This document shows, in pieces, positions 1 to 35,160 of a stretch of DNA of 39,591 bases; position 1 is the first letter of the stretch, and the number at the start of each line of letters is the position of its first letter. The position numbers and the translations under genes were made by a program. Location: assembly GCA_024276815.1 (NCBI GenBank), contig JAJRWM010000100.1, forward strand, positions 1-39,591, given 5' to 3'. This DNA is from a bacterium (GTDB lineage Bacteria; JACRDZ01; JAJRWM01). The notes below the pieces were generated by a model. The model searched no databases. It was not told the origin of the DNA and saw only the letters and a program-made list of their open reading frames with translations.

Positions 1-12
1 GCGGTAAATACA

Positions 13-139
13 GGGATTATCAACTTTTAAAGTTTTTAGCGCTTGAACGACGCGCACGGCTCGCCTGGAAAGGAGCGCGGGGAAGAAACCTTTTCAGACA
101 AGAGGTTTGCCCCACAAAATTTCCGGGGGGAACTCCAAA
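13..139 (+). repeat. Intergenic repeat element, copy 1: invariant 5' module with a GCTTGAAC box, then a GGGG-stem-loop-CCCC hairpin at 79-113
   Basis: nt 13-73 are 61/61 identical to the reverse complement of 12257-12317. Similarity continues to about 139, with differences concentrated in the hairpin. The copy may extend left of the window. Confidence 0.85.
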
Positions 140-9960: not shown

Positions 9961-10833
9961 TTAACAATCAAAAAACGAAAAACCCGTACGCCCGCCTTCT
10001 CGGGGAAAGCCCTGATTGGTCTCGTAGGCCGGGAATCCTCCAGATCCCGGCATACGCCGGTCACAGAGATACAAGACGTCAATAACCGCGCCCCTGTTTT
10101 TCCAGGCGCTTGAGCGCCCGCCGTAAATTCTGGTTGCCGGGGTCTTTTTCAGCTCTTCTTTAACTGATTTCAGCAGGCGTTCTTTCCGGAAACGCTTTTC
10201 ACCATAAACCCGGTTAATTTTCCTGGCCCTCAGGTATTGCCGGGCCGCTTTCAAATAGCGGCCCTGACGGTAATAGGCCACCGCCAGATTATAAGCCGCT
10301 TTAGCGTAACCGGGTTGTAACTTCAGGGCGGCCTGGTAATATTTCGCCGCTTGGGAAAAGTTTTTCCGCCGATGGAAAACCACTCCCAGGTTGTTATAGG
10401 AGACAGCGAAACTCTTGTCCGCCTCAATCGCTTTTAAATAATATTCTTCAGCCCGGGCAAAGTTCTTTTTTAAAAAGTAACAGTAGCCGAGGTTATTGTA
10501 AAGCTCGGCGTCGCTGGCTCCATCAGCTAGAGCCTTGAGGTATTCCGATAAAGCCAGGCTGACTTCCCGGGACTCCAGGTAGATATCGCCGAGCCGGGCA
10601 TGTTCATCCCCGGCGCTTAATTTTATGGTCGGAAAAAACATCAGAAGAAAAAGAAGTGCGAGCGGTAATCTGAAGCGAATTAAAACCTTGGGTGAGGCGA
10701 TGCGTGTGACCCTTTTTTTATGCCAAAAAAGAGTTTCCCCACGTCCCCTCTCCAAAAAATAAATTGGCCGATCGCGAAAACCTTGTATAAGCTTGAAATA
10801 CGCTCTAAAAAGCGAAGACCAGCGAGCAACCAT
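9961..10833 (-). CDS. TPR-repeat protein with a signal-peptide-like segment (start uncertain)
   Basis: Several TPR motifs (LYNNLGYCYFLKKNFARAEEYYLKAIEADKSF, AVSYNNLGVVF...). The hydrophobic segment RFRLPLALLFLLMFFPTIKLSAG has no canonical start in front of it. The first 45 codons of the track ORF overlap repeat copy 5. Confidence 0.6.
   Translation of the reverse strand: MVARWSSLFRAYFKLIQGFRDRPIYFLERGRGETLFWHKKRVTRIASPKVLIRFRLPLALLFLLMFFPTIKLSAGDEHARLGDIYLESREVSLALSEYLKALADGASDAELYNNLGYCYFLKKNFARAEEYYLKAIEADKSFAVSYNNLGVVFHRRKNFSQAAKYYQAALKLQPGYAKAAYNLAVAYYRQGRYLKAARQYLRARKINRVYGEKRFRKERLLKSVKEELKKTPATRIYGGRSSAWKNRGAVIDVLYLCDRRMPGSGGFPAYETNQGFPREGGRTGFSFFDC
10709..10812 (-). repeat. Intergenic repeat element, degenerate copy 5
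   Basis: About 40 nt match copy 2: cttttttt..ccaaaaa.g..t.tccccacg.cccct.tcca, plus the gctctaaaaa box edge. The GCTTGAAC box is degraded to GCTTATAC with an insertion. Confidence 0.5.
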
Positions 10834-11728
10834 AATTTTCCTGATCTTTCCAGGAGAAACGGGGAGTAAAATAATCCGTTACCCTTTTAATAAAGGTCTC
10901 TTCCTGTTTCTGATTGTAGTTCTCCGCCGCGTTAACCGCGCTGTAAATATTGCCCGAATACCAGCCGGACTCCATTAAAGCCATCAGGCCGCCCACAACG
11001 TATTTTTTTTCCTGGAATGAAACAACCGCCAAATAGGTGAACAGACCGTTAACGGTAAGGGAGGCGAAAGCGTCTCCCGGCCGGCCGCTGTAAAGCTGAC
11101 CCGCTCCGGGAAGCGCGGCTGATAACAAACCGGCGAAAAACGGCGAGCGGCGGGATATTTTCGAAGCCTTCTCCAGTTTGCCGGCCGCCTGACCCGCCGG
11201 CCGGCTCAACTCGCTGTTTTCCAGAGCCGCCAGCTCAGAGAAGACTTTTTGGGCGGCCGACCATTTTTTACTGTTCAGGTAACTAACGCCAATCATCCTG
11301 AGAAACTCCGGCTTCAACGGCTCATCCGGATGGGCGGCCAAAAAATATTCCAGTTCGCCCGCGCCCTCTTCGTACTTTTCCATTTCAAAGTAACTCTTGA
11401 CCATAATTAACAGAACTTCCCCGCGCTTCTGACTTTCAGGATAGCGGTCGAGATAAGTTTCACAAGCGTCAGCCGCCCTCGCGAACTGTTCTGCCTGAAA
11501 AAGGCTGTCAATTATTTCATAGAGTGCGGTCTGACTTCTGGGATCAGCCGGAAAGCGGAAGCGGAACCGCTCAAATTCCGTCACCGCCCGGTACAACTCG
11601 CCTTTTTGTTTTAAATGAAGGGCAAAGTCATAGACCTGATCCTGGTTTTCCGCTCTGATGGTCGCTGGTCGACCGAGGAGCAGCAACGCCAACAGAAAGG
11701 TCGTTGTCAGTAGTCGCGTTTTTAACAT
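10805..11728 (-). CDS. Secreted TPR-like protein with a C-terminal two-helix membrane domain carrying a PGxGQxY motif
   Basis: Signal peptide MLKTRLLTTTFLLALLLLGRPATIRA from ATG 11728; the track start at 11812 overlaps yidD and is unlikely. C-terminal FFAGLLSAALPGAGQLYSGRPGDA plus hydrophobic helices resembles the DUF5683-type PGxGQxY motif, from memory. Confidence 0.7.
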   Translation of the reverse strand: MLKTRLLTTTFLLALLLLGRPATIRAENQDQVYDFALHLKQKGELYRAVTEFERFRFRFPADPRSQTALYEIIDSLFQAEQFARAADACETYLDRYPESQKRGEVLLIMVKSYFEMEKYEEGAGELEYFLAAHPDEPLKPEFLRMIGVSYLNSKKWSAAQKVFSELAALENSELSRPAGQAAGKLEKASKISRRSPFFAGLLSAALPGAGQLYSGRPGDAFASLTVNGLFTYLAVVSFQEKKYVVGGLMALMESGWYSGNIYSAVNAAENYNQKQEETFIKRVTDYFTPRFSWKDQENYGCSLVFAF

Positions 11729-11757
11729 GCAGCAGTTTTTCCTTTCGCTCAAACCTG

Positions 11758-12159
11758 TCAGGGCAAATCCACCAGTCTCCCGTTTTTCACCGGGTAATGC
11801 GAAGCCGCGCAATAATTACAGCGCAACAGCCGGCCAGCGGTCATGACGATTCCTTTTAACAAACCATAGCGGACCAGGCATTGCCGGGAATACTCGGAAC
11901 AGGTCGGATAGAAATTACAACGCGGGCCATCGATGTGGGATATCCTGGTCTGGAACAAGTGTAGCGCGTCCTGGAAAAAAAGCCGGAAGACATTGGTCTC
12001 TTTCATCTTTTTTACGGCGGTCGTTTTCTTGGCCGCGATATCCCAAGGGCGCCACTCCGCCCGGCCGGTATTACTTGAAACCAGCAACAGAAAAAGCAAG
12101 GCGAACCCCGCAATGCCCCTGATTAATAACTTTACGTTCATTGCCAAGAAACCTAACAT
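11758..12159 (-). CDS. yidD: YidD-like membrane protein insertion efficiency factor homolog with N-terminal signal/TM extension
   Basis: ISHIDGPRCNFYPTCSEYSRQCLVRYGLLKGIVMTAGRLLRCN matches the YidD Cys-rich signature. AGGAGG RBS lies just upstream of the ATG at 12159 (2-nt spacer). Confidence 0.8.
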   Translation of the reverse strand: MLGFLAMNVKLLIRGIAGFALLFLLLVSSNTGRAEWRPWDIAAKKTTAVKKMKETNVFRLFFQDALHLFQTRISHIDGPRCNFYPTCSEYSRQCLVRYGLLKGIVMTAGRLLRCNYCAASHYPVKNGRLVDLP

Positions 12160-12190: not shown

Positions 12191-12317
12191 TTTGGAGTTT
12201 CCCCCGGAAATTTTGTGGGGCAAACCTTTTTTTCCAAAAAGGTTCTTCCCCACGCCCCTTTCCAGGCGAGCCGTGCGCGTCGTTCAAGCGCTAAAAACTT
12301 TAAAAGTTGATAATCCC
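12191..12317 (-). repeat. Intergenic repeat element, copy 2 (inverted twin of copy 1)
   Basis: The reverse complement aligns with 13-139: 61 nt identical, then about 10 differences or indels clustered in hairpin 12217-12251. Followed, in its own orientation, by TTGACA and the yidD RBS. Confidence 0.85.
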
Positions 12318-12405
12318 TCCTTGAAAAACCATGCTATTACAAATAGTTATAGCTAATTGATTGTTTTTTTGGGGGGCAGGGGGTTGTTTGGCATATTATC
12401 GACGA

Positions 12406-13410
12406 TCAGAAGGATTTTTTGTAATTGCCCGGAGTCAGGGTTATCCCGGCATAGACAAAGGACTTCACGTAATTAGCGTCCCGGTGATTAGAAATATTAT
12501 TCAAAGAGTCGTAGCCAAGGTTGAAGCTGAGGTAGTCGTTGACCTGGAAAGTAAAAGAATTATACACGCCCGTGAAATTATCAAGGCGCTTTTCATCCAG
12601 ATCAGCATCATCAGGGTCGATCGCGGCGTAATCCCGGTAAATACGCTGGCGCAGATGGCCGGTAACCTGCAAAAAAACGTGTTTGCCAAAACTTTGCCAG
12701 AGGTTGAGATAACCGTTATTATTTTGATAATCCCATTGGTCATCGTTCGAGTTGTTGACGCTGCTCTGATAGGTAATCCCGATACGGGTCGATTTGAATA
12801 TCCGCTGGTTAATGGAAACCTGTCCCCCGCTTTCCTGATCGTTCTGCAACACGGTATCCTCGGGGATTTCCTTGAGGGGATAAAGATATTGGTTGAACTG
12901 GTAAGCGCAGTTGAGCGAAGTGAACCTTGTCAGGTTATACCAGATTCCCGGCGAAACTCCGGAGTGAATAAAATAACCTGACTCATAGCTTGGAACCCCG
13001 CTCACTTCGTAAACCAGGGACAAGTCAGAGCTGAATTTGGGAGTAAAGAGATATTCCGTGAGCCAGGAAACGGTGGACGACTGGAAGGGCACAACGCTGT
13101 CCCGTTCCAGGCCGCGGTTCTCCGCTTCGTCCTCCAGCTTGCTCTGGGCCGGCTCAATATACTGAGATAAGGTGTAGCGGCCGGAAAGCGAAGTTCTCAA
13201 CTTCTTTCCGATGGTCGCGGTTAAGCGAACGCCGGGTAACAATTCATACGAGGTCGCTTTTTGCGGGTCATCCTTTTCGCTGAAAACATTTGAATCGGAA
13301 GTGTAGGTCGCTGACAGAATCGGAGCGAACGATAACTGAACCTCGCTCCAGAGACCGCTGGGTATACTCATCACGAGTACAATAAAACCAATAACCAGTT
13401 TCTTGTTCAA
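12406..13410 (-). CDS. Predicted outer-membrane beta-barrel protein
   Basis: 334 aa. Signal peptide, alternating amphipathic strands rich in Y/S/T/N/G, C-terminal ...GNYKKSF ending in Phe (OMP signature). Family not assigned. Confidence 0.7.
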   Translation of the reverse strand: MNKKLVIGFIVLVMSIPSGLWSEVQLSFAPILSATYTSDSNVFSEKDDPQKATSYELLPGVRLTATIGKKLRTSLSGRYTLSQYIEPAQSKLEDEAENRGLERDSVVPFQSSTVSWLTEYLFTPKFSSDLSLVYEVSGVPSYESGYFIHSGVSPGIWYNLTRFTSLNCAYQFNQYLYPLKEIPEDTVLQNDQESGGQVSINQRIFKSTRIGITYQSSVNNSNDDQWDYQNNNGYLNLWQSFGKHVFLQVTGHLRQRIYRDYAAIDPDDADLDEKRLDNFTGVYNSFTFQVNDYLSFNLGYDSLNNISNHRDANYVKSFVYAGITLTPGNYKKSF

Positions 13411-13465
13411 ACGAAATCTCCTCTAGAATCTGTCTGTAAGTCAAATAATTTTCAAGAAGAATCTC

Positions 13466-13541
13466 GGGGTCTCTTTTTGTAAAACACCACCCCCGATCCC
13501 CCACATATCTATCGTGCGAGTTGTTCAAGCTCTAAAACTTT
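13466..13541 (-). repeat. Intergenic repeat element, copy 3 (box subfamily shared with copy 4)
   Basis: The reverse complement reads aaagttttagaGCTTGAACaaCtCGCaCGatagatatgtggggg, followed by an imperfect GGGG...CCCC hairpin at 13466-13493. It begins about 20 nt after the giant gene stop. Confidence 0.6.
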
Positions 13542-13561
13542 CATTTGATCGTTAAAAGCTT

Positions 13562-16500
13562 TTAGTACAGATCAAATATGTGTAACCGCCCCAGGCCGCT
13601 GGCGCTGTCGCGTCGCAGGTATAACACCTTGTCCTGGTTGATCACCGGATTTATTTCATCAGCTTTCTGCCCGGTCAGAAGAAGTTTGCGGCCTTCAAAG
13701 AGGTCATAGAGATAAACGTCGCTGTCAACTCCGTTGTCCTCCTGCCAGACAGCCCGGTCGCCAAAAATTCGGGGGGCTAAATGATCAACCGTGGTATCAA
13801 AGGTCAAATCAACGGCCGTGGTATCGAAAACAACAATCTGGGTCTTCCCGGCCAGCCGGTCCTCTTCATAAATATATTTGTTTCCATAAACATCAGGTTT
13901 TCTCTGATTATAGGTTGTGTCCTGGACAATAGCGTAACTGACACCGCCCACAGCCAGGTCGAAGCCGTAAATATCCTCATCCCCGTTGCGGGTGTCTACC
14001 CAAACGACCCGGTTCCTGAAAATGCGGGGGTCGTATTCATCGGTGGTGGATATTCCGGGAATCAGCGTCTCCGTACTGTCAAAAAGATTGTAATAATAAA
14101 TATCGTACTGGGGGTTGTCGCGTCTGTCCTGCCAGACCACATATCTTCCATAGATGTCAGGATGCTCCTGAGCGCCGGTGGACACCGTATTCACCCGCTG
14201 ACCGCTGTCAACGGGATTGGCGAAATCATTCTTGTGAGCGTAATAAATATCCGCCGTGCCCTCCCGGTAATCTTCCCAGACAACGGTGTTTTCATAAATC
14301 GCGGGATTGAGCTGCGTGAAGCTGTTAATACAGACCGGAACCTCCGTTTTGGTTGTCAGATCAAAAAGGAAAATGTCCGGGTTGCCGTTTCGATCATCCG
14401 AGTAAACCAACTTATCCCCCCAGATATCCCAGCCATAAACATTATGAGGCGGTTGGGGTAAATCATGCTCGCCGGTCGGCTCCAGATCAAAGAGGTAAAT
14501 ATTCCAGTTGGGAGCCGCCGCGCCGTCATCCTGGGACCAGACTATTTTCTCCCCCCAGATATCGGGCTTGGCCTTATTCTTGGTGGCGGTAAAAGTGAGT
14601 CTCTTTTCCGAAGCGGTGGTATCCATCAAGTCTGTCATGTACAATTCGGCCTTGCTCGTAGCGTCCCGGTAATCCTCCCAGACGATCAGCGGCCCGAAAA
14701 TAACCGGGTTAAGCTGGCTTAAAGGCTCGTTTTGCAGCCGGGTATCTGTTGTGTTAAGGAGATCCCGGTACCAGATATCATAGTAACCGTCACGGTTGTC
14801 GCTCCAGACCAGAGAGTTCTCCCAGAGATCGGGACTGCTCTGGATGCCCGTCGAAGCGGCGACCGCCAGTTCGCCGGACAACGCGCTGATATCGGACATA
14901 AATAAATCCTGGTTAGTTGTGCCTCTCTCGTAAATCGCCGAAAGTTCCCAGAGAGTCGGATTATATGAACCAAGCATATCATTGGCCACTTCAACAGAGA
15001 CAAAAGGAGGCGCCGACAGGTCCATTTTATAGAGATAGTCGTAGGCGCTACTGTTTGAAACGTAAACCAGATTATTCTCGTATATTGCCGGCGTCATGTT
15101 GCTGAAACTACTATTTGCTGGTATCGCGAAGGTGCTGTCATAAAAGCCATCATACAGGTACAGGTCATAAAGGCCATCCATATTTTCGGAATAAACAACC
15201 TGGTCGCCCCAGATAGCCGGTTCAGCCTGATTCCAGGAAATGTCATTGCTCAGGTTCTGCTCTGTTTTGGTTGACAGGTTATACAGATAAACGTCGATAT
15301 CAAAACCGCTATTATTGCGATGATCTTCCCAGACCACCTTATCACCCCAGATCCGCGGGTTCTGCTGATCAAAAGCGGCGTTGGTAATTATTTTAATATC
15401 ACTGCGGGGAGCCGCGACCCGCTTTACCGGGTTGCCGTAAGTGTAATTACTGTCGATATCATAAGGATAGAGCTGGTAATAATAATACTCCTGGTTGATT
15501 AAGCCAAGGTCATTATAAGTGCTGTCCACGGAACCATAGTAAACCACATCGCCGTCGCCAAGGACGCTGCCCGCATTGTAGGAAATCCCGTTAACCGGGC
15601 CGGCGCCCGGGTAATCGCCCAGCTTGCGCAGGATAAGCACGCCGTCCCAGGCCGGATCAGTCAGGTTGTCCCAACACAGCTCAACGCTGGAGTCAAACCC
15701 CAAGGCCCAGAAAGGGTTGGGCTTGAGATCAATGTTCATGGAAGTCGGCGGGCTGACATTGCCCAGATCATCCCTGGCGAGCAGGGAAATACTGTTGGGG
15801 CCTTCATGGAGGGTGGTGTCAAAGGTCCAGGAACCGGAAAAAGGCGTGAAAGGAATCAGGGCGCCGTTGACAGAGATCGCTTCAACATCCGGTTCGCAGG
15901 TGCCGTCTATTGTCCAGGTCTGTTGGTGGGTTGAAAAATCAACGCCATTATAGGGTGTTACAATAATCGGCGCATTGACGGTTGTGTCGAAAATTATTTC
16001 GATAACATCGCGGGCGCTTTTCGTGCTGTCAGCGGCGACCCCGTAAACGCCAAGATAGTTGCCGCTGCCAGCCAGGTTGATGCTTTCAGTCCAGGTTGCG
16101 CTGTTAGGCGCATAAGCCGTTATCTGAAAGGTCGTATCCAGGGTAGCGTCCAGGAAGTATTTTTCAACAAAGATCGCTACGGTATTCGTGGAATCACAAC
16201 TGCCAGCCAGGGTTACCGGGGAAGCGGCGACCCGGACCGACAAACCACTGCCCGGAGAGGTGATTACCGGCGGCGCGATATAGGTTGAATCCAGAGTAAT
16301 CGCTATGTCTTCAAAAGCCCCGACATTGCTCGAGCTGTCATAACCGGCGAAATGAAAATAATTCACTCCGGTCTCCAGCGTGATGCCGGAATGTCCCCAG
16401 GAAGAATCATAGGCGGTAAAAGTATTAACCGGCATCGTGGTCTCCTGGCTGGCCGAGGTATGAGTAACTATAATAGCAACGGTATCGGAACTGCAATCCC

Positions 16501-18754
16501 CAAAGAAGTTGACAGTCGGGACCGGCGTGGTGAAATCATTGCCCAGGTTAGGTGCGTGCATTTGCAAATAACCGGTGCCCACTATTGCGCGCTGGATGAT
16601 GGTCGTATCAAAAGCCCCCCCAACTGAACTACTGTCATAGCCGGTAAAACGGTAGGAATTGTCCCCCAGCTCAAGCGAAGCCAGAAAAGACCAGGTTGTG
16701 TCCGTCGCGGTATAGTTGGGCAGGTTGAAAGATGTGTCGCTGGAAGAGGAGAGGTAATCCACGCCTATCGAATAGGTGTCGGGAGAACAAATACCCGTGA
16801 TTAGAAAAGTTGAGTCAAAGGTACCATAGACACCGGGAGCGGGCTTGGTGACCGCTAACATCTGCGTGCCGTAACTGATGATCGTAAAAGAATAGTTGAC
16901 GTTTACCTGGTTGCCGCTAAGATCGCTGGCTGTAATCGCTACCGGAACTGTCTGGGCGATAAGAAACAGCGTGTCTCTGAAGACCGTAACATTAAAGCCC
17001 CCGGCTCCGTCGCTAACTATTCCGCTTCCGCTGAAACCGGCCTGAACCACACCGTTCAGGATCGCCGCGGCGCTGTCAACCGTAACATTAATGGTCGTGG
17101 AATCCACTCCTGACAGGTTATCGTCGATTTCAAAATAAACGCTGGCGTTAACGGGAAGGTTGATCGCGCCGTCCGCCGGAATCAGGTTGGTAACGGTCGG
17201 CGGAGCGGTGTCGCCCACATCAACAGTGGTGAAGGAATAGGTTTCGGTCGGCATCGCGTTTGGGGTTGACGCGTAGTCCGAGACATCAACCTGCACGCTG
17301 ATCATTTGGTTGCCGCTGAATGGCGCTGGCGGAACAATGGTGACGTTGTAGCCGCCGGCGTCATCAGAAACCAGTTGACCACTGAAGCCGTTTTGGAAGA
17401 CTCCGTCGCTGATAGCCTGGAGACTGTTCGTCAGTGCGTTAAGCTTAAAGATTCCGTCGGTGGCGGCTTGAGCACTGTCCACCAGCACATTCAGCGTGTT
17501 CAGATTAACGCTGGAGCCAACGTCGTCAATTTCAAAATAAATACTGGTTGCCAGGGGAACGTTAACCGCGCCGGGCGCCGGGTTATGGTTGGTAATCACG
17601 GGGGCGGTTGCGTCGCCGGCCGGCGTGTAGGTAACATCCAGAGTCGCCGGCAACGCCAGGGTGCCCGACGGATGATAAGCATAGAATAAGAAGCTGTTCA
17701 ATCCCGAGGTCAGAGGGTGGGTTAGCGACCAGGTCGTGTCGGAAGCGACATAGCCGGGCAGCTCAAAGGTTGAGTCAAGACTACTGTCATAATCGGACAA
17801 ATAACTTACCACAAATATTCCGGTCGCCGGGTCGGTCGTGCCGCTGATCGTAATTGGCGAACCGGTCGTGACAAAGGGGGTGGTCGCGGGCGCGGTAATA
17901 GTCGGCGCCGGCAAGAGGGTTGAGGAGTCGAAATAAAGGGCTTGCTGGGCCGGCGGTACGTAAGTGCTGTCGGCGCCGATACCAAAAATATTAAACTGGT
18001 TAAAACCGGGAGCTAAATCGTAATCATAGCTCCAGGTGGTGTCCCCGGGTAAATAGGTTCCATTTGGAAACGAGGTTAGCGAGAAGGTCGTGTCCAGGCT
18101 GGGAACGTTGGTTGAGAAATAATTAACCCAGATATCGATCAGGGCCGGGTCGCAAGTGCCGGCGAAAGTGTGGCTTGGCTGACCGGTGAGAACACTGTTA
18201 CCGTTGAAAGGAGCCGTGATCACCGGTGAAGGCGGCCCACCGCCAACCTGGTAAACAAAGATGTTAACCGTGGAAAAATCACCGGTGGTTAAATCAGCGT
18301 AAGCGTTGCCGTAAAGGACGTTTTTATTGTTAAAACCAATTAAAAACACCTCGAAAAAACGATCCGAACCAACCGGGACATCCACCTCAAGCTCCGCGGC
18401 TGTTTGTCCGGGGGGAATATCGATTACCTTATTGATGTTATCAATATCGTCCGCGCTCACTGAAAGCCGGACCGCTTTGACCGGCGGCAAAGTCGCGACC
18501 AGCGTGGTGCCCCCGGCCGTCTTTTTGATTTGCCGCTTGATGTTGATGTTAACTGAAGCGTATCTGGTCGCCGAATGTCCGCCTGCCTGCTCGCTGTTTT
18601 TCGGCCCGCAACCATTAAGCGCGGAGAAGGAAAGAATCAACAAGATTACCAAGGATAAAAGCGGAATCGTTTTATTCCGCCACCGAAGTCGCCGATTATA
18701 TTCAGACGCTTCGTTCAGGTTGGCTGATTCGGGCTTTTTCTTATCAATCAACAT
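13562..18754 (-). CDS. Giant surface/periplasmic lipoprotein: 6 Ig-like modules, 2 SbsA/Big_5-like modules, an FN3-like domain and 14 beta-propeller-type repeats
   Basis: 1732-aa track ORF (GTG 18760). GGGAGG sits 5 nt before ATG 18754. Lipobox-like FSALNGC (Cys51). Repeated P.IT.P...G.CD...TTWS...G.N.F modules. Two APxxTNxxPAxGAxNxP...YFEIDD modules. 14 repeats of the form P.IWGD.VVWED.R.G..DIY.Y.L. Confidence 0.9.
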   Translation of the reverse strand: MLIDKKKPESANLNEASEYNRRLRWRNKTIPLLSLVILLILSFSALNGCGPKNSEQAGGHSATRYASVNINIKRQIKKTAGGTTLVATLPPVKAVRLSVSADDIDNINKVIDIPPGQTAAELEVDVPVGSDRFFEVFLIGFNNKNVLYGNAYADLTTGDFSTVNIFVYQVGGGPPSPVITAPFNGNSVLTGQPSHTFAGTCDPALIDIWVNYFSTNVPSLDTTFSLTSFPNGTYLPGDTTWSYDYDLAPGFNQFNIFGIGADSTYVPPAQQALYFDSSTLLPAPTITAPATTPFVTTGSPITISGTTDPATGIFVVSYLSDYDSSLDSTFELPGYVASDTTWSLTHPLTSGLNSFLFYAYHPSGTLALPATLDVTYTPAGDATAPVITNHNPAPGAVNVPLATSIYFEIDDVGSSVNLNTLNVLVDSAQAATDGIFKLNALTNSLQAISDGVFQNGFSGQLVSDDAGGYNVTIVPPAPFSGNQMISVQVDVSDYASTPNAMPTETYSFTTVDVGDTAPPTVTNLIPADGAINLPVNASVYFEIDDNLSGVDSTTINVTVDSAAAILNGVVQAGFSGSGIVSDGAGGFNVTVFRDTLFLIAQTVPVAITASDLSGNQVNVNYSFTIISYGTQMLAVTKPAPGVYGTFDSTFLITGICSPDTYSIGVDYLSSSSDTSFNLPNYTATDTTWSFLASLELGDNSYRFTGYDSSSVGGAFDTTIIQRAIVGTGYLQMHAPNLGNDFTTPVPTVNFFGDCSSDTVAIIVTHTSASQETTMPVNTFTAYDSSWGHSGITLETGVNYFHFAGYDSSSNVGAFEDIAITLDSTYIAPPVITSPGSGLSVRVAASPVTLAGSCDSTNTVAIFVEKYFLDATLDTTFQITAYAPNSATWTESINLAGSGNYLGVYGVAADSTKSARDVIEIIFDTTVNAPIIVTPYNGVDFSTHQQTWTIDGTCEPDVEAISVNGALIPFTPFSGSWTFDTTLHEGPNSISLLARDDLGNVSPPTSMNIDLKPNPFWALGFDSSVELCWDNLTDPAWDGVLILRKLGDYPGAGPVNGISYNAGSVLGDGDVVYYGSVDSTYNDLGLINQEYYYYQLYPYDIDSNYTYGNPVKRVAAPRSDIKIITNAAFDQQNPRIWGDKVVWEDHRNNSGFDIDVYLYNLSTKTEQNLSNDISWNQAEPAIWGDQVVYSENMDGLYDLYLYDGFYDSTFAIPANSSFSNMTPAIYENNLVYVSNSSAYDYLYKMDLSAPPFVSVEVANDMLGSYNPTLWELSAIYERGTTNQDLFMSDISALSGELAVAASTGIQSSPDLWENSLVWSDNRDGYYDIWYRDLLNTTDTRLQNEPLSQLNPVIFGPLIVWEDYRDATSKAELYMTDLMDTTASEKRLTFTATKNKAKPDIWGEKIVWSQDDGAAAPNWNIYLFDLEPTGEHDLPQPPHNVYGWDIWGDKLVYSDDRNGNPDIFLFDLTTKTEVPVCINSFTQLNPAIYENTVVWEDYREGTADIYYAHKNDFANPVDSGQRVNTVSTGAQEHPDIYGRYVVWQDRRDNPQYDIYYYNLFDSTETLIPGISTTDEYDPRIFRNRVVWVDTRNGDEDIYGFDLAVGGVSYAIVQDTTYNQRKPDVYGNKYIYEEDRLAGKTQIVVFDTTAVDLTFDTTVDHLAPRIFGDRAVWQEDNGVDSDVYLYDLFEGRKLLLTGQKADEINPVINQDKVLYLRRDSASGLGRLHIFDLY

Positions 18755-18776
18755 GCTCACCTCCCGACCTCGACGA

Positions 18777-19895
18777 TTAGTTAAGGTCAGTCCAATCGAG
18801 ACGTATTTTTACCCTGATCTTCTTTCGTTCCGTAGCGCTGGGCGGCAGATCGCGCGGCGGCCCTACGGGCGACCAGGGGGTTGCCCCGAAGGCGTCATCA
18901 GGAAATCCGTCGGGTTTTATCTCCGGGCTTTTGGTGCCATCAGTATTGCCCGTGTCAGGCAGGGCGCCCCCTGAATTGTCTTCAGGGAATAATTCATCCT
19001 CAAAAATTTCCTCAAGCGGCGGCAAGTCTTCCGGGATCAGGTCTTCCAGTTTTTCCTTTTGGTCTTCCCCGGCTTCCTTTACCCCTTCTTCCGGTACGCC
19101 CTCTTCCTTCACCTCTTCACCTGATTCTTCTGTCTGCTCAGTTTTTTTACCTTCTTCAGGCAGTGGCGGACCAGGTTTTTCCTTTATTTCTTCTATCGTC
19201 TCAAGAAGTTTTTTCTGAAAATTTTCTGGGAGGGATTTTATCTCGACCTGGTCGCCCCTTTTGACTAAAAGGCCTAATTGCTTGCCGGCGAAGACAGCAT
19301 GGGAGCGTCCCGGAGCGTCTTTGAAGGAGACTCTCACTTCCCCGGAAGCGACCGAGAGGTCGCCTTTGCCCTGCGGGGTGGAGCGGGCGAGATAAGAGGT
19401 GCCGTAAACGCCCATGACGGCGGTCGGCGTTTCCAGGTTATGAATATCCTGGCGGCGCAGTTTGTTGACCTTGGCCATCACCCGGCCAAAAAAGAGCCTG
19501 AACTTGGAAACTTTTTTGGTTTGCTTCTTCCTGAAAAAGAAGAGGAACCGTTTGCTTTCCCGCGTTTCGGAAAGATCCTTGATCTGAAACAGGGTTGGTC
19601 CGTCAAGCCTCAGTCTTTCGCTGTGAAAGACGATATCCATCCGGGACCTTGCCGGGACGTGGAGAACATCGCCCTTTTTGAGGACATTGCGGACCCGAAG
19701 TTTTTTCCAGAGCCGGTATTTTCGCAGAGAATCCTTGAGGTAGTCGGGCGACTTGTTGTTGCCGGTATAGATATAGGCTCTGCCTCTGACCAGCGTTACC
19801 CGACCGGTGACTTCCCTGGCCAGAGCCGGCGAGTTAATCAGCAAAAGGAAAGCCAGGAACATTCCCCAGAGCCGAAGATTTCTCCTACTATTCAT
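18777..19895 (-). CDS. FecR-domain protein with an acidic/Pro-rich C-terminal region
   Basis: Signal peptide ...LLLINSPALA. FecR-like pattern GRVTLVRG...LKKGDVLHVPARSRMDIVF...LETPTAVMGVYGTSYL...VASGEVRV. aa 233-335 are E/P/D-rich. The stop is 16 nt before the giant gene. Confidence 0.8.
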   Translation of the reverse strand: MNSRRNLRLWGMFLAFLLLINSPALAREVTGRVTLVRGRAYIYTGNNKSPDYLKDSLRKYRLWKKLRVRNVLKKGDVLHVPARSRMDIVFHSERLRLDGPTLFQIKDLSETRESKRFLFFFRKKQTKKVSKFRLFFGRVMAKVNKLRRQDIHNLETPTAVMGVYGTSYLARSTPQGKGDLSVASGEVRVSFKDAPGRSHAVFAGKQLGLLVKRGDQVEIKSLPENFQKKLLETIEEIKEKPGPPLPEEGKKTEQTEESGEEVKEEGVPEEGVKEAGEDQKEKLEDLIPEDLPPLEEIFEDELFPEDNSGGALPDTGNTDGTKSPEIKPDGFPDDAFGATPWSPVGPPRDLPPSATERKKIRVKIRLDWTDLN

Positions 19896-19992: not shown

Positions 19993-20021
19993 AGTATAGA
20001 GCCAAAGGAGCAGGATGTCAA
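19993..20021 (-). promoter_or_regulatory. Near-consensus sigma70 promoter for the FecR/giant-gene operon
   Basis: On the minus strand: TTGACA (20021-20016), exactly 17 nt, TATACT (19998-19993). About 90 nt upstream of ATG 19895. Confidence 0.55.
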
Positions 20022-22234: not shown

Positions 22235-22918
22235 ATGCTAAGAAATTTTCGCTTCCTTTTTATTGTCGCCTTATCTTCATGCTTGGCGTTGGCCTCGGTA
22301 AGCGCGGCTTCGTTTGTCACTTACAGCGACAGCTCAAGTTTCAACGCAGCGCTGGGCGGCACAGTTCTCAACACCCAGGATTTTAACAGTTATTCACATA
22401 TGGACAATTTGAATGGCGTCGAGTTGCTTCCCGGAGTGACGGTAACGTCCAACATGAGTAATATTGTCGCCTGGCAGGTATCGCAGCCCAATCCAATATT
22501 ATTCGCGTATGATAGCGTTATCCGCAACTCAACGACGGACGCTTACTATGATATTAACCTGGCCTCAGCGTATAATACAGTCCAGTTTACGATAGAAGCC
22601 TGGGACCCCGCCGCTCCCGGGCCGGGCACGATGGAAATTTTCTTTAGCGACGCGACCAGTTCTTCTTTGCAATTATTTCAAACCGGGGCTCATGAAAGCG
22701 ATCCAGTGTTTTTTGGCGTCATATCCGATGCCTCTATTGATAGGATTCGCTGGACTGAAGGTCCGGAAATATACGGTGGTGGCAACGAAGAAACGGGGCT
22801 GGATAATATTAGTGTGGGAAATGTAAACGCTATTCCTGAACCAGCCACGATTTTCTTGCTTGGCGGTGGTCTGTTGGGCATGTTTGGTCTTAAGAAAAAC
22901 AGCTCATCTGAGGCCTGA
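22235..22918 (+). CDS. PEP-CTERM sorting-domain protein
   Basis: Signal peptide. C-terminal IPEPATIFLLGGGLLGMFGLKKN = PEP motif + TM helix + basic cluster. GGAGAAAC RBS. Confidence 0.8.
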   Translation: MLRNFRFLFIVALSSCLALASVSAASFVTYSDSSSFNAALGGTVLNTQDFNSYSHMDNLNGVELLPGVTVTSNMSNIVAWQVSQPNPILFAYDSVIRNSTTDAYYDINLASAYNTVQFTIEAWDPAAPGPGTMEIFFSDATSSSLQLFQTGAHESDPVFFGVISDASIDRIRWTEGPEIYGGGNEETGLDNISVGNVNAIPEPATIFLLGGGLLGMFGLKKNSSSEA

Positions 22919-22970: not shown

Positions 22971-23016
22971 TAACACGTCCCCTCCATATCCATCGCGCGA
23001 GCAGTTCAAGCATTAA
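22971..23016 (-). repeat. Intergenic repeat element, copy 4 (box only; the hairpin position is occupied by the terminator)
   Basis: The reverse complement ttaatGCTTGAACtgCtCGCgCGatggatatggagggga aligns with copy 3 (gcttgaac..ctcgc.cgat.gatatg..gggga). Confidence 0.55.
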
Positions 23017-31016: not shown

Positions 31017-31874
31017 ATGAGCAAATTCGGACGTGTTTTTGTTCTTTGGGTTAATTCCATAAAAACGCTTTTTACCGCGCCCAAAATCTGGATACCGATA
31101 CTGGTTATGGGAGGAATCCACCTGACGCTTCTTGCCTGCCTGTACTTTTTCCCCCGACCGCCGCTGAGAATGGTCTTCGCGCCGATTATCAGACGTTTTT
31201 TTGGCGAGACCTACCTGCACTATCCCTATAATTTCGTGGTCTTGCCTTACCTGGCTAAAATATTGCGACAGAGCCTGGTGATCTTTATCGATATTTACTT
31301 CATCGCGGTTTTAGCGAAATTAACCAGCCAGTCGCTGCGCGACCGCGCTTTGAGCCTGAAATCAGCCTTCAAAGACGCTCTTTTTAAAATTTTCCCCTTG
31401 CTGGCCTATTCCTTGCTCCTGGTCCTCATCCTGTACGTCGTGCAGAAAGTTCCCCCGTATGTGTTTAAAACGATCTATAAAAGCCCGATGATCGCGGATA
31501 AACAAATGGCTGTTTACAAGAGCATTAACCAGGGAATGTTTTACGCCCTGAAGTTTGTCGGCGTGGTTATTCAGGTTTTCTTCGTATATACGATACCCGC
31601 ACTGGTAGTCGGTGAGTACAGCCTGCTGCATTCGGTTGACCGCAGTTTCAGAATCGCGGCCCGTAATTTTTTTTCGACCCTGTTTTTGGTCCTGATCCCG
31701 ACCGCAGTCGTCTTCGGCATAGAGCAGTACGTCAAAACGCCCAAACCTTTAATAGAAAATTATTATCCGGAAGTAATCTTCCACATTTTGCTGGTGAATA
31801 TATTGCTATACGTAATGTTGAGTTATTTAACCATCGCCCCGGTCACCGAAGTTTACCTTGAGAACAGCAAGTAG
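31017..31874 (+). CDS. Polytopic membrane protein of unknown function (about 6-7 TM helices)
   Basis: 285 aa, hydrophobic segments throughout. I recognise no motif. Sits immediately upstream of the Wzz/BY-kinase gene. Confidence 0.6.
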   Translation: MSKFGRVFVLWVNSIKTLFTAPKIWIPILVMGGIHLTLLACLYFFPRPPLRMVFAPIIRRFFGETYLHYPYNFVVLPYLAKILRQSLVIFIDIYFIAVLAKLTSQSLRDRALSLKSAFKDALFKIFPLLAYSLLLVLILYVVQKVPPYVFKTIYKSPMIADKQMAVYKSINQGMFYALKFVGVVIQVFFVYTIPALVVGEYSLLHSVDRSFRIAARNFFSTLFLVLIPTAVVFGIEQYVKTPKPLIENYYPEVIFHILLVNILLYVMLSYLTIAPVTEVYLENSK

Positions 31875-31889
31875 GACGCGAATATAAGT

Positions 31890-33986
31890 ATGCATAGAGA
31901 TTTCGTCGCCAAATCCGATTTAAGAAAATATATCAAGATTGTTATCCGTCGCAAGTTTATCCTGATCTTTTCCACCCTGGTTATCTTCTCACTGTCAGTG
32001 CTGGGTATTTTTCTCAGCAAGCCGGTGTATCAGGCGTCAACCAAGGTCTTGATTAAGACCCCGGAGGGGCTGGGGCTGATTTCTGACGATGTCAATATGG
32101 TTGATAAAAGCATCAGGCCTATCCGCAGCCGGATACTCAGTTATGTTTATCTGAAAAAGGTGGTTGAGCGGTTGAACATGGTGAAAAGCCTGCGGGAAAA
32201 ATTCGCTGTGGGTAAATTCGCTGAAGCTCCCAGGGAAATGATCGAACGACTGATTATCAATAATCTCCAGCAACGGCGGTTAAGAGTTATTCCCAAGGGC
32301 AAATTCCTGTTTGAAATCCGGGCGCAACATGAGGACCCCAAGCTCGCCATGGACCTGGCCAATAATGTCGCCCAGGTGTTTATTGAGGAAAGTTTTCGGG
32401 ATGAACAGGCCGGGTTGAACGCTTTGTTCTCTTTTATCAGCGAGCAGTTGGAAAAATATAAAAACCGTCTGCTGGACGCTGAAGACAAGCTGACAGAATA
32501 TAAAATGAAAAACATTGTGCCCAAGGAAATTTCCCGCTCCAATAAAAAAATCAACGAATACGAGTCTCAAAAAGCCAAGCTGGAAATTAACCTGAGAGCG
32601 CTTAATATTGAGTTGGATAACCTGCGGAAAGTAATTCTTGAAAGCGACTCCAGAATCCTGGACTATTATGTCAACAACGTCCAGAGCTTTAAGGGGTTAC
32701 GCGTTCCAGATATAGAGACAAAGATCGAGGAGCTTAAATTTACCCTCGAAAACCTGCTCACCAAATACACCAGGAGCTACCCGGCGGTTATCGAGGTTCA
32801 AAGAAGAATCAACGGTCTTCAGGAGAAACTGCTGAACGAGGTCAAGCTGGGTATTCAGAAAAAGATAAACAGTTACCAGAAAGAGCTTGAGCGTTCAAAA
32901 CTGATAATGAAGGATCTGGATGCCAAAATCGAGGAATACAACAAACAGCTTATGTCGCTGCCGGCGCAAGAGGTTGAGTATGTGCGTTTGTTGAGATACA
33001 AGGAAACCAGTGAAAATATTTATAAACTGTTCATGAAGAAAATGGAAGATACGGAGATCGCCAAAGCGTCTGACCAGAAGAAAATCCGCATACCATACAA
33101 GATAATTGATCCGGCCCTGTTGCCCTTGGTACCGGTTAAACCCAACAAGAAAAAAATCCTGATTATGGGTCTTTTCCTGGGGTTTGGAGTAGGCTTCGCC
33201 TGGATTTTCCTGCTGGAGTTTTTTGATTCCTCCCTGAAAGATGTTGAGGATATCGCTCACATGGTTAAGGCGCCTAACCTGGGCGTGATACCATTAATTG
33301 GCTTGGGGAAAGGGCAGGCGCCGGAGATTGATAATTTATACGACCGGGAGTCGAACTACCTGACGGAATTTATTCGTCTTTATAAAAACATTGAAGTCCT
33401 GGGAACTCCCCAGGTGATACTGTTTACCAGTAGCTTGAAAAGCGAAGGGAAGAGCTTGTTAATCAGCAGCCTGGCCTTGACGGCGATACGTATGCAGCAA
33501 GAGCCGGTATTGCTGATCGATAGCGATTTAAGGGGCGGGCGGCTGCACCGGATTTTTAAAACGCCGAACGAGGTTGGTCTCTCGGATATTCTGACGGGTC
33601 AGGCGAAGCTGGACGAGGCGGTCAAGGAAACGAAATATCCCAACCTGAAACTGATAACCGTGGGGACCAGGAACAAGAACCCCGGTGAATTTGTCGAATC
33701 GCCGGCTTATGCCAAACTTATCAGGGAATTACGAACCAAGTACCGCTATATTTTAATTGACGCGCCGCCGGTTTTGCCGGTCAACGACGCTATCTCGATC
33801 AGTCGCCACGCGGACGGCGTTATCTATATCGTTTTGGCCGGCGAAACTCCTCTTGAGGTAATCAAGCGGGGGCTGGGTATCCTCGAACAAGCGCAGACCA
33901 AGGTTTTCGGCACGGTAGTTAATAACAAGAAAGAAGTTTTAAACGACGCCGGCTATGGCTATGATTACGCTTATCCCTATGAATAG
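31890..33986 (+). CDS. Polysaccharide co-polymerase (Wzz/GumC-like) fused to a BY-family tyrosine kinase, Wzc/EpsG-like
   Basis: 698 aa. N-terminal TM, long coiled-coil region, second TM. Walker A SSLKSEGKS, A' LLIDSDLRGG, B ILIDAPPVLPVNDA. C-terminal Tyr cluster GYGYDYAYPYE. Confidence 0.85.
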   Translation: MHRDFVAKSDLRKYIKIVIRRKFILIFSTLVIFSLSVLGIFLSKPVYQASTKVLIKTPEGLGLISDDVNMVDKSIRPIRSRILSYVYLKKVVERLNMVKSLREKFAVGKFAEAPREMIERLIINNLQQRRLRVIPKGKFLFEIRAQHEDPKLAMDLANNVAQVFIEESFRDEQAGLNALFSFISEQLEKYKNRLLDAEDKLTEYKMKNIVPKEISRSNKKINEYESQKAKLEINLRALNIELDNLRKVILESDSRILDYYVNNVQSFKGLRVPDIETKIEELKFTLENLLTKYTRSYPAVIEVQRRINGLQEKLLNEVKLGIQKKINSYQKELERSKLIMKDLDAKIEEYNKQLMSLPAQEVEYVRLLRYKETSENIYKLFMKKMEDTEIAKASDQKKIRIPYKIIDPALLPLVPVKPNKKKILIMGLFLGFGVGFAWIFLLEFFDSSLKDVEDIAHMVKAPNLGVIPLIGLGKGQAPEIDNLYDRESNYLTEFIRLYKNIEVLGTPQVILFTSSLKSEGKSLLISSLALTAIRMQQEPVLLIDSDLRGGRLHRIFKTPNEVGLSDILTGQAKLDEAVKETKYPNLKLITVGTRNKNPGEFVESPAYAKLIRELRTKYRYILIDAPPVLPVNDAISISRHADGVIYIVLAGETPLEVIKRGLGILEQAQTKVFGTVVNNKKEVLNDAGYGYDYAYPYE

Positions 33987-34013
33987 CCGGTTATCCCGGC
34001 CGCCTCGCAAGGA

Positions 34014-35147
34014 ATGATGTTTAAACGACTGCTAGTTTTGAATACCAGCGTTTCAGGAATGAATAAATTTCTTTTCCGCTCTTTGGCAAAAGAAGGCTGG
34101 AAGCTGGAAATTATCGATATTCCTTTGCCTCGTTCCGACATCCTTCGAGCCTACGCTGAGACCTTTAATCTTAATGTTAAATTGTGGAAAAAACAGGCGA
34201 CCGCGAAAATAGAAAGTTACCAGATCTCGCCTCGGATTTTTCGTAAACGTTCGCTTTACTGTGAAAAACTACTAAAGAAAGAATGGCGGCCCGGCGACTT
34301 GATCCTGCAGATAGCCGGCCTTTTCGCGCCGGTGGTCAGCCTGGAACATCTGCCCGGGCCTTACGCCGTGTTTCTAAGTTTTACCGCCAGGCTTTCCGCG
34401 CGTGAATACCCACCCTGGGTACCGTTTGAATCTGATAAAGATCGGGAGGGCTGGTTTAGATCAGAAGCCTTTCTTTATCAAAGCGCTTCCCTGATTCTTT
34501 CAACCAACGCTCATGCTAAAAAATCACTGGTTCAGGACTATCGGGTTGACGGACAAAAGGTAACGGTGATCGGTTACGGTATTAACCTGGAAAAGCTGGT
34601 CCGAGAAGAAAAAGATTATTCCGGGAAGAAAATTTTGTTTATCGGGTATGATTTTGTGCGCAAAGGCGGACCGACAATTCTGTCCGCTTTTGCCCAGGTC
34701 CGGCAAAGTCTGCCCGACGCGGAACTGATTATCATCGGGCCGCCAGTTCCCGATACCGTGCCGCAGGGCGTTAACTGGATTGGCCCGGTTCAGGATCGAA
34801 GCGTTGTTGCCGGGGCATTGCGGGAAGCGGTTGTTTTTGTCATGCCGTCAATCTGCGAACCCTTTGGCCTGGTGTTTTTGGAAGCGATGGCTAATGGTCT
34901 GCCTTGCATTGGCAGCTACCGCGACGCGATGCCCGAAATAATTCAAGAAAACGAAACGGGTTTTTTAATTGAGCCGGGCGATGCGGAAGACTTGGCGGCG
35001 AAGATGAAGAAGCTGTTAACTGACCGGGAGTTATGTCAAAGCATGGGGCAGGCCGCCGCGGTCAGGGTCGATCAGAATTTCACCTGGGAACTGGTCGGCA
35101 AAAGGGTAACCGAAGCAATCAATAAAACTGGCCGTCTTGTCGACTGA
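34014..35147 (+). CDS. GT4 family (GT-B fold) glycosyltransferase
   Basis: C-terminal half has the GT4 pattern ...FVMPSICEPFGLVFLEAMANGLPCIGS...E..TGFL. Confidence 0.8.
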   Translation: MMFKRLLVLNTSVSGMNKFLFRSLAKEGWKLEIIDIPLPRSDILRAYAETFNLNVKLWKKQATAKIESYQISPRIFRKRSLYCEKLLKKEWRPGDLILQIAGLFAPVVSLEHLPGPYAVFLSFTARLSAREYPPWVPFESDKDREGWFRSEAFLYQSASLILSTNAHAKKSLVQDYRVDGQKVTVIGYGINLEKLVREEKDYSGKKILFIGYDFVRKGGPTILSAFAQVRQSLPDAELIIIGPPVPDTVPQGVNWIGPVQDRSVVAGALREAVVFVMPSICEPFGLVFLEAMANGLPCIGSYRDAMPEIIQENETGFLIEPGDAEDLAAKMKKLLTDRELCQSMGQAAAVRVDQNFTWELVGKRVTEAINKTGRLVD

Positions 35148-35160
35148 TTGAGGGAAAATT

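Follow-up and report, generated by a model that had tools for sequence, protein, structure and literature searches.

A conserved envelope gene module of a FecR-like protein, a lipoprotein and an outer-membrane beta-barrel, and its divergent copy in a bacterial contig

Results

Gene organization of the locus

We analyzed a stretch of 39,591 nucleotides (nt) of bacterial DNA (contig JAJRWM010000100.1 of GenBank assembly GCA_024276815.1), hereafter called the window, and focus on three consecutive genes coding for a FecR-like protein, a giant predicted lipoprotein of 1732 amino acids (aa) and an outer-membrane beta-barrel. Comparison with related loci shows that genes for a FecR-like protein, a lipoprotein and a barrel constitute a conserved module, which is co-inherited across phyla and often accompanied by a CHASE2 cyclase gene. 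The trio in the window is a divergent, rearranged copy of this widespread envelope gene set. The window itself starts with dnaA-dnaN-recF and also contains a PEP-CTERM protein gene and an exopolysaccharide (EPS) locus.

On the minus strand, the order from 20.0 down to 12.4 kb is a promoter-like site, the FecR-like gene, the giant lipoprotein gene and the barrel gene (Table 1). An earlier description made from the letters alone (the sequence-only reading) had placed these genes at coordinates that are all correct. It also proposed that a near-consensus promoter drives a tightly packed set, to which a YidD-like gene and tetratricopeptide repeat (TPR) genes were assigned as well. The promoter indeed matches the consensus at 11 of 12 positions and is the top sigma-70-like match in a 13-kb scan (7.9 to 21 kb), lying within a 188-nt gap after a LysM-M23 peptidase gene. 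At a looser threshold 21 sites are observed against 11.2 +/- 3.8 expected, so only the top site is notable. Tight packing holds for the FecR-like and giant genes, where the stop of the former and the start of the latter open reading frame (ORF) are separated by 16 nt as had been described, but not for the giant-to-barrel gap (151 nt) or the barrel-to-YidD gap (246 nt). Copies of a repeat element are present in both of these longer gaps. No extracytoplasmic function (ECF) sigma factor, TonB-dependent receptor or CHASE2 protein turned up when the plausible window ORFs of 150 aa or more were examined. Sigma factor and receptor had already been reported as absent and the FecR-domain protein as standing outside its classical FecI/FecA context, and both statements hold.

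Table 1. Positions of the features discussed, in the window unless a related locus (L number) is given
Feature	Position	Strand	Basis or remark
Sigma-70-like promoter TTGACA-17-TATACT	19993..20021	-	Upstream of FecR-like gene
FecR-like periplasmic protein, 372 aa	18777..19895	-	PF04773 match; HMM match; architecture in alignment A5
FecR-like C-terminal motif GPPRDLPPSATERKKIRVKIRLDW	18792..18863	-	Loose fit to consensus of FecR-like neighbors
Giant lipoprotein gene, 1732 aa	13562..18760	-	Probable start ATG at 18754
Putative leader peptide and lipobox (...SFSALNG-C51)	18608..18760	-	Read from sequence; shared with domain-sharing proteins (see text)
Conserved N-terminal domain, aa 59-172	18245..18586	-	jackhmmer finds 46 proteins in related loci
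Ig-like array, aa ~176-1105, ~9 domains	15446..18235	-	Two Big_5, several glucodextranase-B-like, one fn3-like
~14 beta-propeller blades, aa ~1110-1732	13565..15433	-	TIGR04275 repeats, 297.7 bits, 10 stretches
Partial repeat-motif copy	13513..13540	-	Within 151-nt gap upstream of barrel gene; full copies upstream of dnaA and yidD
14-stranded (modeled) outer-membrane beta-barrel, 334 aa, no TPR domain	12406..13410	-	AlphaFold2, Foldseek, profile alignment
YidD homologue	11758-12159	-	PF01809, 62.7 bits
YbgF/BamD-like TPR protein	10805-11812	-	Next to YidD
128-nt element, first copy	12-139	+	Inverted pair with second copy, 92% identity
128-nt element, second copy	12191-12318	-	
128-nt element, further partial copy	22995-23011	-	
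P-type ATPase, 963 aa	4289-7180	-	
PEP-CTERM protein gene	22235-22918	+	
EPS locus	31017-38747	+	
~170-aa lipoprotein genes in relatives	L002 1587-2093; L006 7127-7630; L008 9423-9956; L011 9361-9885; L012 9016-9543		

The barrel protein

The 334-aa protein had been read as a beta-barrel outer-membrane protein, and structure prediction bears this out. AlphaFold2 modeling with a 13-sequence alignment predicts a barrel of 14 strands (pLDDT 80.5, pTM 0.73); from the single sequence a pLDDT of only 31 is reached. Top PDB matches of the model in Foldseek are the 14-stranded OmpG, FadL, CymA and TodX (TM ~0.55-0.64), without a specific homologue among them. At the sequence level the barrel matches no Pfam family, the Slam model PF04575 (SlipAM, DUF560) gives no match even at E <= 10, and a PDB sequence search with the barrel profile yields nothing meaningful. 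The sole named similarity is to the EpsL model TIGR03014 (19.7 bits against a cut-off of 275, E 3.6e-4).

Relatives are few in direct searches. A word-indexed homology search returns only the barrel itself, and phmmer over 1.8 billion representatives finds three proteins: a fragment that is 50% identical to the window barrel (P0008), a 63-aa fragment, and a protein of 436 aa with 27% identity (P0010) in which an N-terminal TPR domain precedes a C-terminal barrel. A profile search seeded with these matches uncovers a family of 420-435-aa TPR-barrel proteins, the barrel halves of which align end to end with the window barrel (alignment A4). Motifs common to the family are DSNV, WDY, R-x-D, N-x-SN and a C-terminal aromatic residue. 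To avoid circularity, the hidden Markov models (HMMs) used to establish homology of the barrel, of the N-terminal lipoprotein domain and of the FecR-like protein were rebuilt without the window sequences; against such a model the window barrel scores 38.2 bits (E 6.6e-8 at Z=1e6). Its signal peptide is followed directly by strand 1. Assuming the usual topology of outer-membrane proteins, nearly all family-invariant polar residues (DSNV 39-42, W226-D-Y228, R275/D277 and N305/S307/N308) would be located at the extracellular ends of the modeled strands, which suggests a functional site at the outer mouth of the barrel.

Similarity of the family to named groups is spread thinly over several of them. 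PF04575 is found in 4 of the 13 family members with 17-21 bits (gathering score 22, best E 1.2e-5), and PF24575, the Slam TPR domain, reaches at most 26 bits against 35. PF10082 (BBP2_2) matches 8 of the 13. TIGR03016 and TIGR03014 (EpsL) each match 11, with best E-values of 4e-8 and 1e-6, below the curated cut-offs. Because all named-family matches are sub-threshold, we regard the barrel as a distinct branch of the outer-membrane barrel superfamily that can be assigned neither to Slam nor to EpsL. Both comparisons made in the sequence-only reading thus survive in part. The analogy to Slam gains from the relatives, which carry a TPR domain and a Slam-sized barrel of ~280 aa with weak matches to PF04575 and PF24575, but sub-threshold scores do not make the family a member of Slam or the type 11 secretion system (T11SS). 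The EpsL alternative, in turn, stands as distant similarity but not as membership. The family combines a Slam-like architecture in the relatives with an EpsL-like remote similarity.

The giant lipoprotein

The giant protein was earlier taken for a lipoprotein, and the features at its N-terminus agree with this. The ATG at 18754 is favored as start because of a GGAGG Shine-Dalgarno sequence. The leader is basic, then hydrophobic, and ends in L-N-G-C51. When only the 114-aa segment just after Cys51 was used as jackhmmer query against all ORFs of the loci, 46 proteins were retrieved that share a domain of ~110 aa (the N-domain). Most of their genes are found 0-20 nt after a FecR-like gene, comparable to the 16 nt in the window. 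The window N-domain scores 44.8 bits (E 6.6e-10 at Z=1e6) against the HMM built without it, and the motif of the family (alignment A7) reads ...TVSG.DM..I...V.V.G......F.VPNG.NR.F.V.A....G..LY.GD...DL.G.P..V.I.M. In 43 of 45 family proteins the domain is directly preceded by an N-terminal hydrophobic leader and a cysteine, typically as ...ASCGGG or ...LSCSGG. Given this leader and cysteine at the same place, lipoprotein status appears to be a trait of the family as a whole.

Searches of Pfam and of PDB sequences give no match to the N-domain, which would make it a previously undescribed and unannotated domain of this lipoprotein family. The precomputed annotation of the window protein (P0002) lists PF26549.1, whereas a Pfam scan of the same protein at E <= 0.01 is without it. 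PF26549.1 might correspond to the N-domain.

Behind the N-domain lies the payload: an array of Ig-like domains, recognized by PF13205 (two stretches), PF09136 and repeat units read from the sequence, and then the propeller region. A regular expression places 10 blade starts at aa 1135-1663, and about four more are seen by eye; the resulting ~14 blades probably form two 7-bladed propellers. The propeller is weakly similar to TolB (TIGR02800, E 5.5e-8). Proteins elsewhere that resemble the Ig array are only generic multi-Ig surface proteins without barrel or FecR neighbors. This also applies to the best database matches of the giant protein, P0003 and P0004, which were rejected as relatives of the system; lacking such neighbors, they owe their resemblance to generic Ig-repeat similarity.

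The FecR-like protein

The FecR-like protein consists of a signal peptide (aa 1-26), a FecR-type domain (~28-235), an acidic, Pro-rich linker (~236-344) and a C-terminal strand motif (345-368). PF04773 matches at 31 bits against a gathering score of 24, in agreement with the earlier view of a secreted FecR-domain protein with a long acidic/Pro-rich tail; the tail measures ~110 aa. The N-terminus is a Sec signal peptide, cleavable between SPALA and REV, and no anti-sigma region is found in the protein. A weak similarity exists to the leptospiral FecR-domain lipoprotein LipL45.

A FecR HMM of 6 sequences did not detect the window protein, which is therefore considered a divergent member. Against an HMM of 65 barrel-adjacent FecR-like proteins from which it was left out, it scores 37.4 bits (E 1.3e-7 at Z=1e6), and alignment A5 shows that it has the architecture of the family. 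Most of the 63 complete FecR-like neighbors end in PP(I/V)xQ(Q/E)P...T(P)VxIxVxF(P), after a low-complexity linker rich in Pro, acidic residues or Gly/Ser. The C-terminus of the window protein matches this motif loosely. A role of the motif in docking is conceivable.

Conservation of the three-gene module

The census covers 76 related loci and uses HMMs built in this analysis. A scan of one genome per GTDB species, seeded with alignment A6 (A4 being too divergent), added 70 loci. Barrel genes with enough downstream sequence were evaluated for a FecR-like neighbor (n=67), and those with at least 9 kb downstream for a CHASE2 protein (n=38). The module is found in Nitrospirota/Thermodesulfovibrionales, Geobacteraceae, Binatia and some delta- and gammaproteobacterial metagenome-assembled genomes (MAGs). 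Cultured carriers are Geomonas limicola Red745 (L011) and Geomesophilobacter sediminis Red875 (L012), both Geobacteraceae.

In all of the six first neighborhoods the TPR-barrel is followed by a FecR-like protein of 250-305 aa. A protein with CHASE2 and Guanylate_cyc domains comes next in L002, L003, L004 and L007; the contigs of L005 and L006 stop before that point. Over the complete census, a FecR-like gene is located immediately downstream of 58 of the 67 evaluable barrel genes, commonly with a 4-nt overlap. Together with the 46 N-domain proteins this confirms that FecR-domain protein, lipoprotein and barrel are a co-conserved unit, as the sequence-only reading had supposed. Of the 38 loci evaluable in this respect, 21 encode a CHASE2 adenylate/guanylate cyclase no more than 10 kb downstream, which fits the role in sensing that had been offered as one of two options. 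Four loci (L017, L047, L051 and L052) have two barrel/FecR-like modules in tandem upstream of one CHASE2 cyclase. Two such modules are also present in L016, with no cyclase in the stretch available.

The usual order in relatives is barrel, FecR-like, lipoprotein. What follows the N-domain varies among them and includes fn3, Big_5, DUF1565/NosD beta-helix, CARDB and PD40 propeller domains. We also considered a giant cargo that is itself conserved. This was rejected, since the giants encoded beside the TPR-barrels of L006 and L002 share homology with one another but not with the window giant; a conserved N-domain with a variable payload is therefore preferred.

Some loci show a different composition. 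In Geobacteraceae-type loci the TPR-barrel gene is immediately preceded by the gene for a ~170-aa lipoprotein (...GIAGCGGG...), and the FecR-like and cyclase genes adjoin; this lipoprotein may represent a second, divergent partner family. The giant upstream proteins of L002 and L006 share a dockerin-like C-terminus, and large upstream ORFs are also seen in L008 and L012. Three loci from gammaproteobacterial MAGs (L067, L069 and L076) encode barrels of the same family of ~330 aa that lack TPRs, and have no adjacent FecR-like gene.

Divergence of the window copy and its neighboring genes

The order in the window (FecR-like, lipoprotein, barrel) is a rotation of the usual one. A lipoprotein gene followed by a barrel gene is also seen in L047, where a 1182-aa PD40-propeller lipoprotein is encoded, and in L050. 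In the close relatives L001 (the source of P0008) and L078 (a frameshifted metagenomic contig) an ORF with propeller repeats immediately precedes the barrel gene. The window lipoprotein has a far larger payload than its relatives.

The YidD-like and TPR genes, counted as part of the set in the sequence-only reading, are not conserved with the barrel: rimP follows the barrel in L001. In the window the two groups are separated by the 246-nt gap with its repeat element, and membership of the YidD and TPR genes in the module was rejected. The idea that the neighboring TPR proteins replace the fused TPR domain was rejected as well: the 290-aa protein gives generic piecewise matches only (26.7 bits) and the 335-aa protein none, while the strongest TPR match in that comparison is an unrelated GT2-TPR protein. 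On the basis of the repeat-containing gap and the generic or missing TPR similarity, we argue that YidD and the two TPR genes form a separate unit. The YidD homologue has an unusual N-terminal extension of ~60 aa with a hydrophobic leader. The adjacent YbgF/BamD-like TPR protein ends in a region with a PGAGQLYSG motif and two apparent transmembrane segments. These two look like a unit of their own.

Other features of the window

One copy of the inverted 128-nt element precedes dnaA by ~230 nt and the other precedes yidD by ~30 nt, so that the pair brackets the 12-kb segment from dnaA to yidD. Its 28-nt core (AGTTTTTAGCGCTTGAACGACGCGCACG) is found again in front of the barrel gene. Compared with shuffled controls the element folds far better (z = -3.6), and no Rfam family matches it; the window as a whole has no Rfam match at gathering thresholds. 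The element could serve as a promoter or regulatory cassette, encode a small RNA, or be a repeat resembling repetitive extragenic palindromes (REP) or miniature inverted-repeat transposable elements (MITE).

The EPS locus comprises genes for a Wzz/GNVR chain-length protein, GT4 glycosyltransferases, a Wzy_C/O-antigen-ligase-like protein and a GT4-polysaccharide deacetylase fusion. Given this locus and the PEP-CTERM gene, the genome probably has an exosortase system. The P-type ATPase carries an unusual N-terminal array of glutaredoxin, two YHS and one HMA domain. DnaA, DnaN and three other window proteins each form a cluster of their own at 90% identity in a set of ~15 billion proteins; the source lineage is very sparsely sampled.

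Discussion

Proposed function of the module

The module is probably a cell-surface input device for signaling and not a random gene neighborhood. In the mechanism that we tentatively put forward, and which may well turn out to be correct, a barrel-held lipoprotein acts as an 'antenna' that is coupled via the FecR-like protein to a CHASE2 sensor, and the window contains a rearranged copy of this arrangement. The barrel would hold or present the lipoprotein at the outer membrane via the N-domain of the latter. The large payload, of a binding type, would then serve as antenna for an extracellular or envelope ligand, providing a sensing or adhesive surface. The FecR-like protein would dock to this outer-membrane complex, with its long linker and terminal strand reaching through the periplasm to a CHASE2 domain in an inner-membrane cyclase or kinase, by which the event would be turned into a cyclic-nucleotide signal. 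The tandem modules over a single cyclase suggest several input modules per sensor, and fit the idea that modules act as inputs that need not be adjacent to their sensor. For this genome the partner sensor would be encoded elsewhere.

A number of observations weigh against the proposal. No CHASE2 protein or other signaling output is found in the 39.6-kb window, and 17 of the 38 evaluable relatives have no nearby cyclase either. The window barrel is without the TPR domain that is present in nearly all relatives, and its model is based on 13 sequences only. The FecR-like protein is divergent, with insertions, while the payload of the lipoprotein is not homologous to the payloads of the relatives. 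Furthermore, the lipobox in the window has a non-canonical Asn at -2. The function that we infer for the module, including protein-protein contact, surface exposure of the lipoprotein and its lipidation, remains a prediction.

Alternative explanations

The main rival is surface display alone. Here a distant, TPR-less relative of Slam would flip or thread the lipoprotein to the surface, where it acts as an adhesin or polymer binder; the FecR-like protein would be a periplasmic chaperone or plug, and no signaling would be involved. In favor of this are the architecture of the relatives (TPR plus a barrel of ~280 aa, with a lipoprotein gene adjacent), the 14 modeled strands, and the sub-threshold hits to PF04575 (4 of 13 members) and PF24575 (up to 26 against 35 bits). 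In addition, the payload domains are typical of extracellular proteins, and the window holds no sensor gene. Yet all Slam matches fall below the Pfam cut-offs, and matches to EpsL and TIGR03016 recur more regularly (11 of 13 each). Known T11SS cargo shares a C-terminal 8-stranded barrel (PMC8406197), whereas the conserved part here lies at the N-terminus and a propeller at the C-terminus. Display alone leaves unexplained why a FecR-like partner is almost always present (58 of 67) and a CHASE2 cyclase frequently so (21 of 38), and we consider this explanation rather unlikely.

A structural role in the periplasm and an EPS role of the EpsL type are both less likely. For the former, the lipoprotein would reside on the inner leaflet of the outer membrane and bind peptidoglycan or envelope polymers by its propellers and Ig-like domains, with the barrel and the FecR-like protein as its anchor. 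The weak TolB similarity of the propeller points in this direction, as do the envelope-related neighbors (the LysM-M23 peptidase upstream, the YbgF/BamD-like TPR protein and YidD downstream) and the existence of FecR-domain/LysM fusions (PMC5192318). These neighbors are not conserved with the module, however. Also, the free variation of payloads in the relatives is what one expects of ligand-binding or adhesive surface domains, and the conserved polar residues of the barrel would, on the modeled topology, lie at the extracellular rim. Altogether a structural complex seems improbable. It is more improbable still, to the point that we attach very little weight to it, that the barrel belongs to a PEP-CTERM/exosortase polysaccharide system and stands beside the other two genes by circumstance. 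The window barrel does match TIGR03014 weakly (E 3.6e-4), 11 of 13 family members match TIGR03016 or TIGR03014, and a PEP-CTERM gene and an EPS locus (31-39 kb) are present in the window. Against this, the score reaches 19.7 bits where the curated cut-off is 275, the EPS genes lie on the other strand at a distance of more than 11 kb, and the conserved neighbors recognized for the barrel family are FecR-like and lipoprotein genes rather than EPS genes.

Implications

The antenna mechanism can be extended to a new trans-envelope route, which we state as a possibility and regard as doubtful in its entirety. A Slam-like barrel would display a lipoprotein with swappable payloads, the N-domain and the terminal strand of the FecR-like protein would couple it to CHASE2, and the window copy would be an orphan antenna. 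If true, the long-unknown physiological input of CHASE2 is a protein partner instead of a small ligand, and the window copy is an antenna that has become detached, has a double propeller as payload and feeds a CHASE2 protein whose gene lies elsewhere. Few extracytoplasmic sensor domains are as common in bacterial cyclases and kinases as CHASE2, and the signal it senses is still unknown (PMC5192318). Pairs of a FecR-domain protein and a CHASE2 kinase are reported from Burkholderia and P. aeruginosa (PMC5192318), and in Campylobacterota a CHASE2 cyclase gene is clustered with genes for a phosphodiesterase, a FecR-domain protein and a TPR protein (PMC9239204).

In the literature that we found, the clustering with CHASE2 is noted in passing, and the barrel half of the TPR protein, the lipoprotein family and the terminal motif of the FecR-like protein are not described. 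What had been a loose remark on the clustering of FecR and TPR genes with those of CHASE2 cyclases becomes, with our analysis, a defined module of three parts: a TPR domain fused to a barrel of 14 predicted strands, a FecR-like protein with a conserved terminal strand, and a lipoprotein family with a new N-domain and swappable payloads. An outer-membrane complex of lipoprotein and barrel as input of CHASE2 is a concrete and testable idea, and two cultured strains carry the canonical module. It may also be that the Slam/T11SS lipoprotein translocators have, in this barrel family, a deep relative outside the Proteobacteria. The window, finally, illustrates the extent to which the module can drift, with the TPR domain and an adjacent sensor missing, the gene order rotated and a lipoprotein of 1732 aa.

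Comparison with known systems

A close parallel is formed by the Slam proteins, whose barrels have 14 strands. As in Slam/T11SS, a barrel modeled with 14 strands is encoded beside a lipoprotein gene, and the barrels of the relatives are preceded by a periplasmic TPR domain at the N-terminus; both Slam Pfam models match weakly, co-linearly and below threshold. There are differences as well. The window barrel has no TPR domain, and all matches are below gathering scores. The window lipoprotein lacks the C-terminal 8-stranded barrel of the TbpB type; its last ~620 aa are a TIGR04275 propeller and its conserved element is N-terminal. Neither the near-constant FecR-like partner nor the frequent CHASE2 cyclase has been described for T11SS. 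Moreover, hosts of the module are Nitrospirota, Geobacteraceae, Binatia and others, and not host-associated Proteobacteria.

With the FecA/FecR/FecI system the module shares a periplasmic PF04773 domain that is genetically coupled to an outer-membrane barrel and, in our proposal, the relay of an outer-membrane event across the periplasm. In contrast to FecR, the window protein has a cleavable signal peptide rather than a cytoplasmic anti-sigma domain and a transmembrane helix. No ECF sigma factor is found among the plausible window ORFs, and in the relatives a CHASE2 cyclase is the likely output. With 14 strands in the model and without a plug or STN domain, the window barrel is not a 22-stranded TonB-dependent transducer.

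In RcsF-OmpA/C/F of Enterobacteria, a barrel-held lipoprotein senses the state of the envelope or surface and signals to a partner in the inner membrane. By analogy, a lipoprotein held by an outer-membrane barrel would be the sensor in the mechanism proposed here. The two are unrelated in sequence, and RcsF uses general porins, without a dedicated barrel or a FecR-like intermediary.

The EpsL/TIGR03016 proteins, PEP-CTERM-associated outer-membrane proteins of the BBP2 type, show the most consistent remote similarity to the barrel family, with matches in 11 of 13 members (best E 4e-8), and a PEP-CTERM protein and an EPS locus are found in the window. The scores are far below the cut-offs, however, and the conserved partners recognized in the 76 loci, in a survey that did not extend to EPS genes, are FecR-like and lipoprotein genes rather than exosortase or EPS genes. 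The PEP-CTERM gene is located 2.3 kb upstream and the EPS locus at least 11 kb off.

Pairs of FecR and CHASE2 proteins resemble the module in that a secreted FecR-domain protein is encoded together with a CHASE2 sensor, as seen for the BiofilmReg LysM-FecR/CHASE2 kinase pair of Burkholderia and for the Campylobacterota cluster. The latter includes a TPR protein (PMC9239204), comparable to the arrangement of TPR-containing barrel, FecR-like protein and CHASE2 cyclase in our relatives. The papers in question note gene clustering only (PMC5192318, PMC9239204). The window copy differs from these pairs by its much larger lipoprotein, by the missing TPR domain and by the lack of a nearby CHASE2 gene.

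Finally, the outer-membrane barrel protein NsrA of Sinorhizobium meliloti is required upstream of CHASE2 cyclases (PMC7529298, PMC13001267), and shares with our proposal an outer-membrane barrel acting upstream of such cyclases (CyaD1/CyaD2/CyaK) in the perception of external signals. NsrA has ~1200 aa with its barrel at aa 600-1200, against 334 aa for the barrel here, and no lipoprotein partner is described for it. From this layout (PMC7529298) NsrA was judged a functional analogue only; as such, it provides a functional precedent for signaling from the outer membrane to CHASE2.

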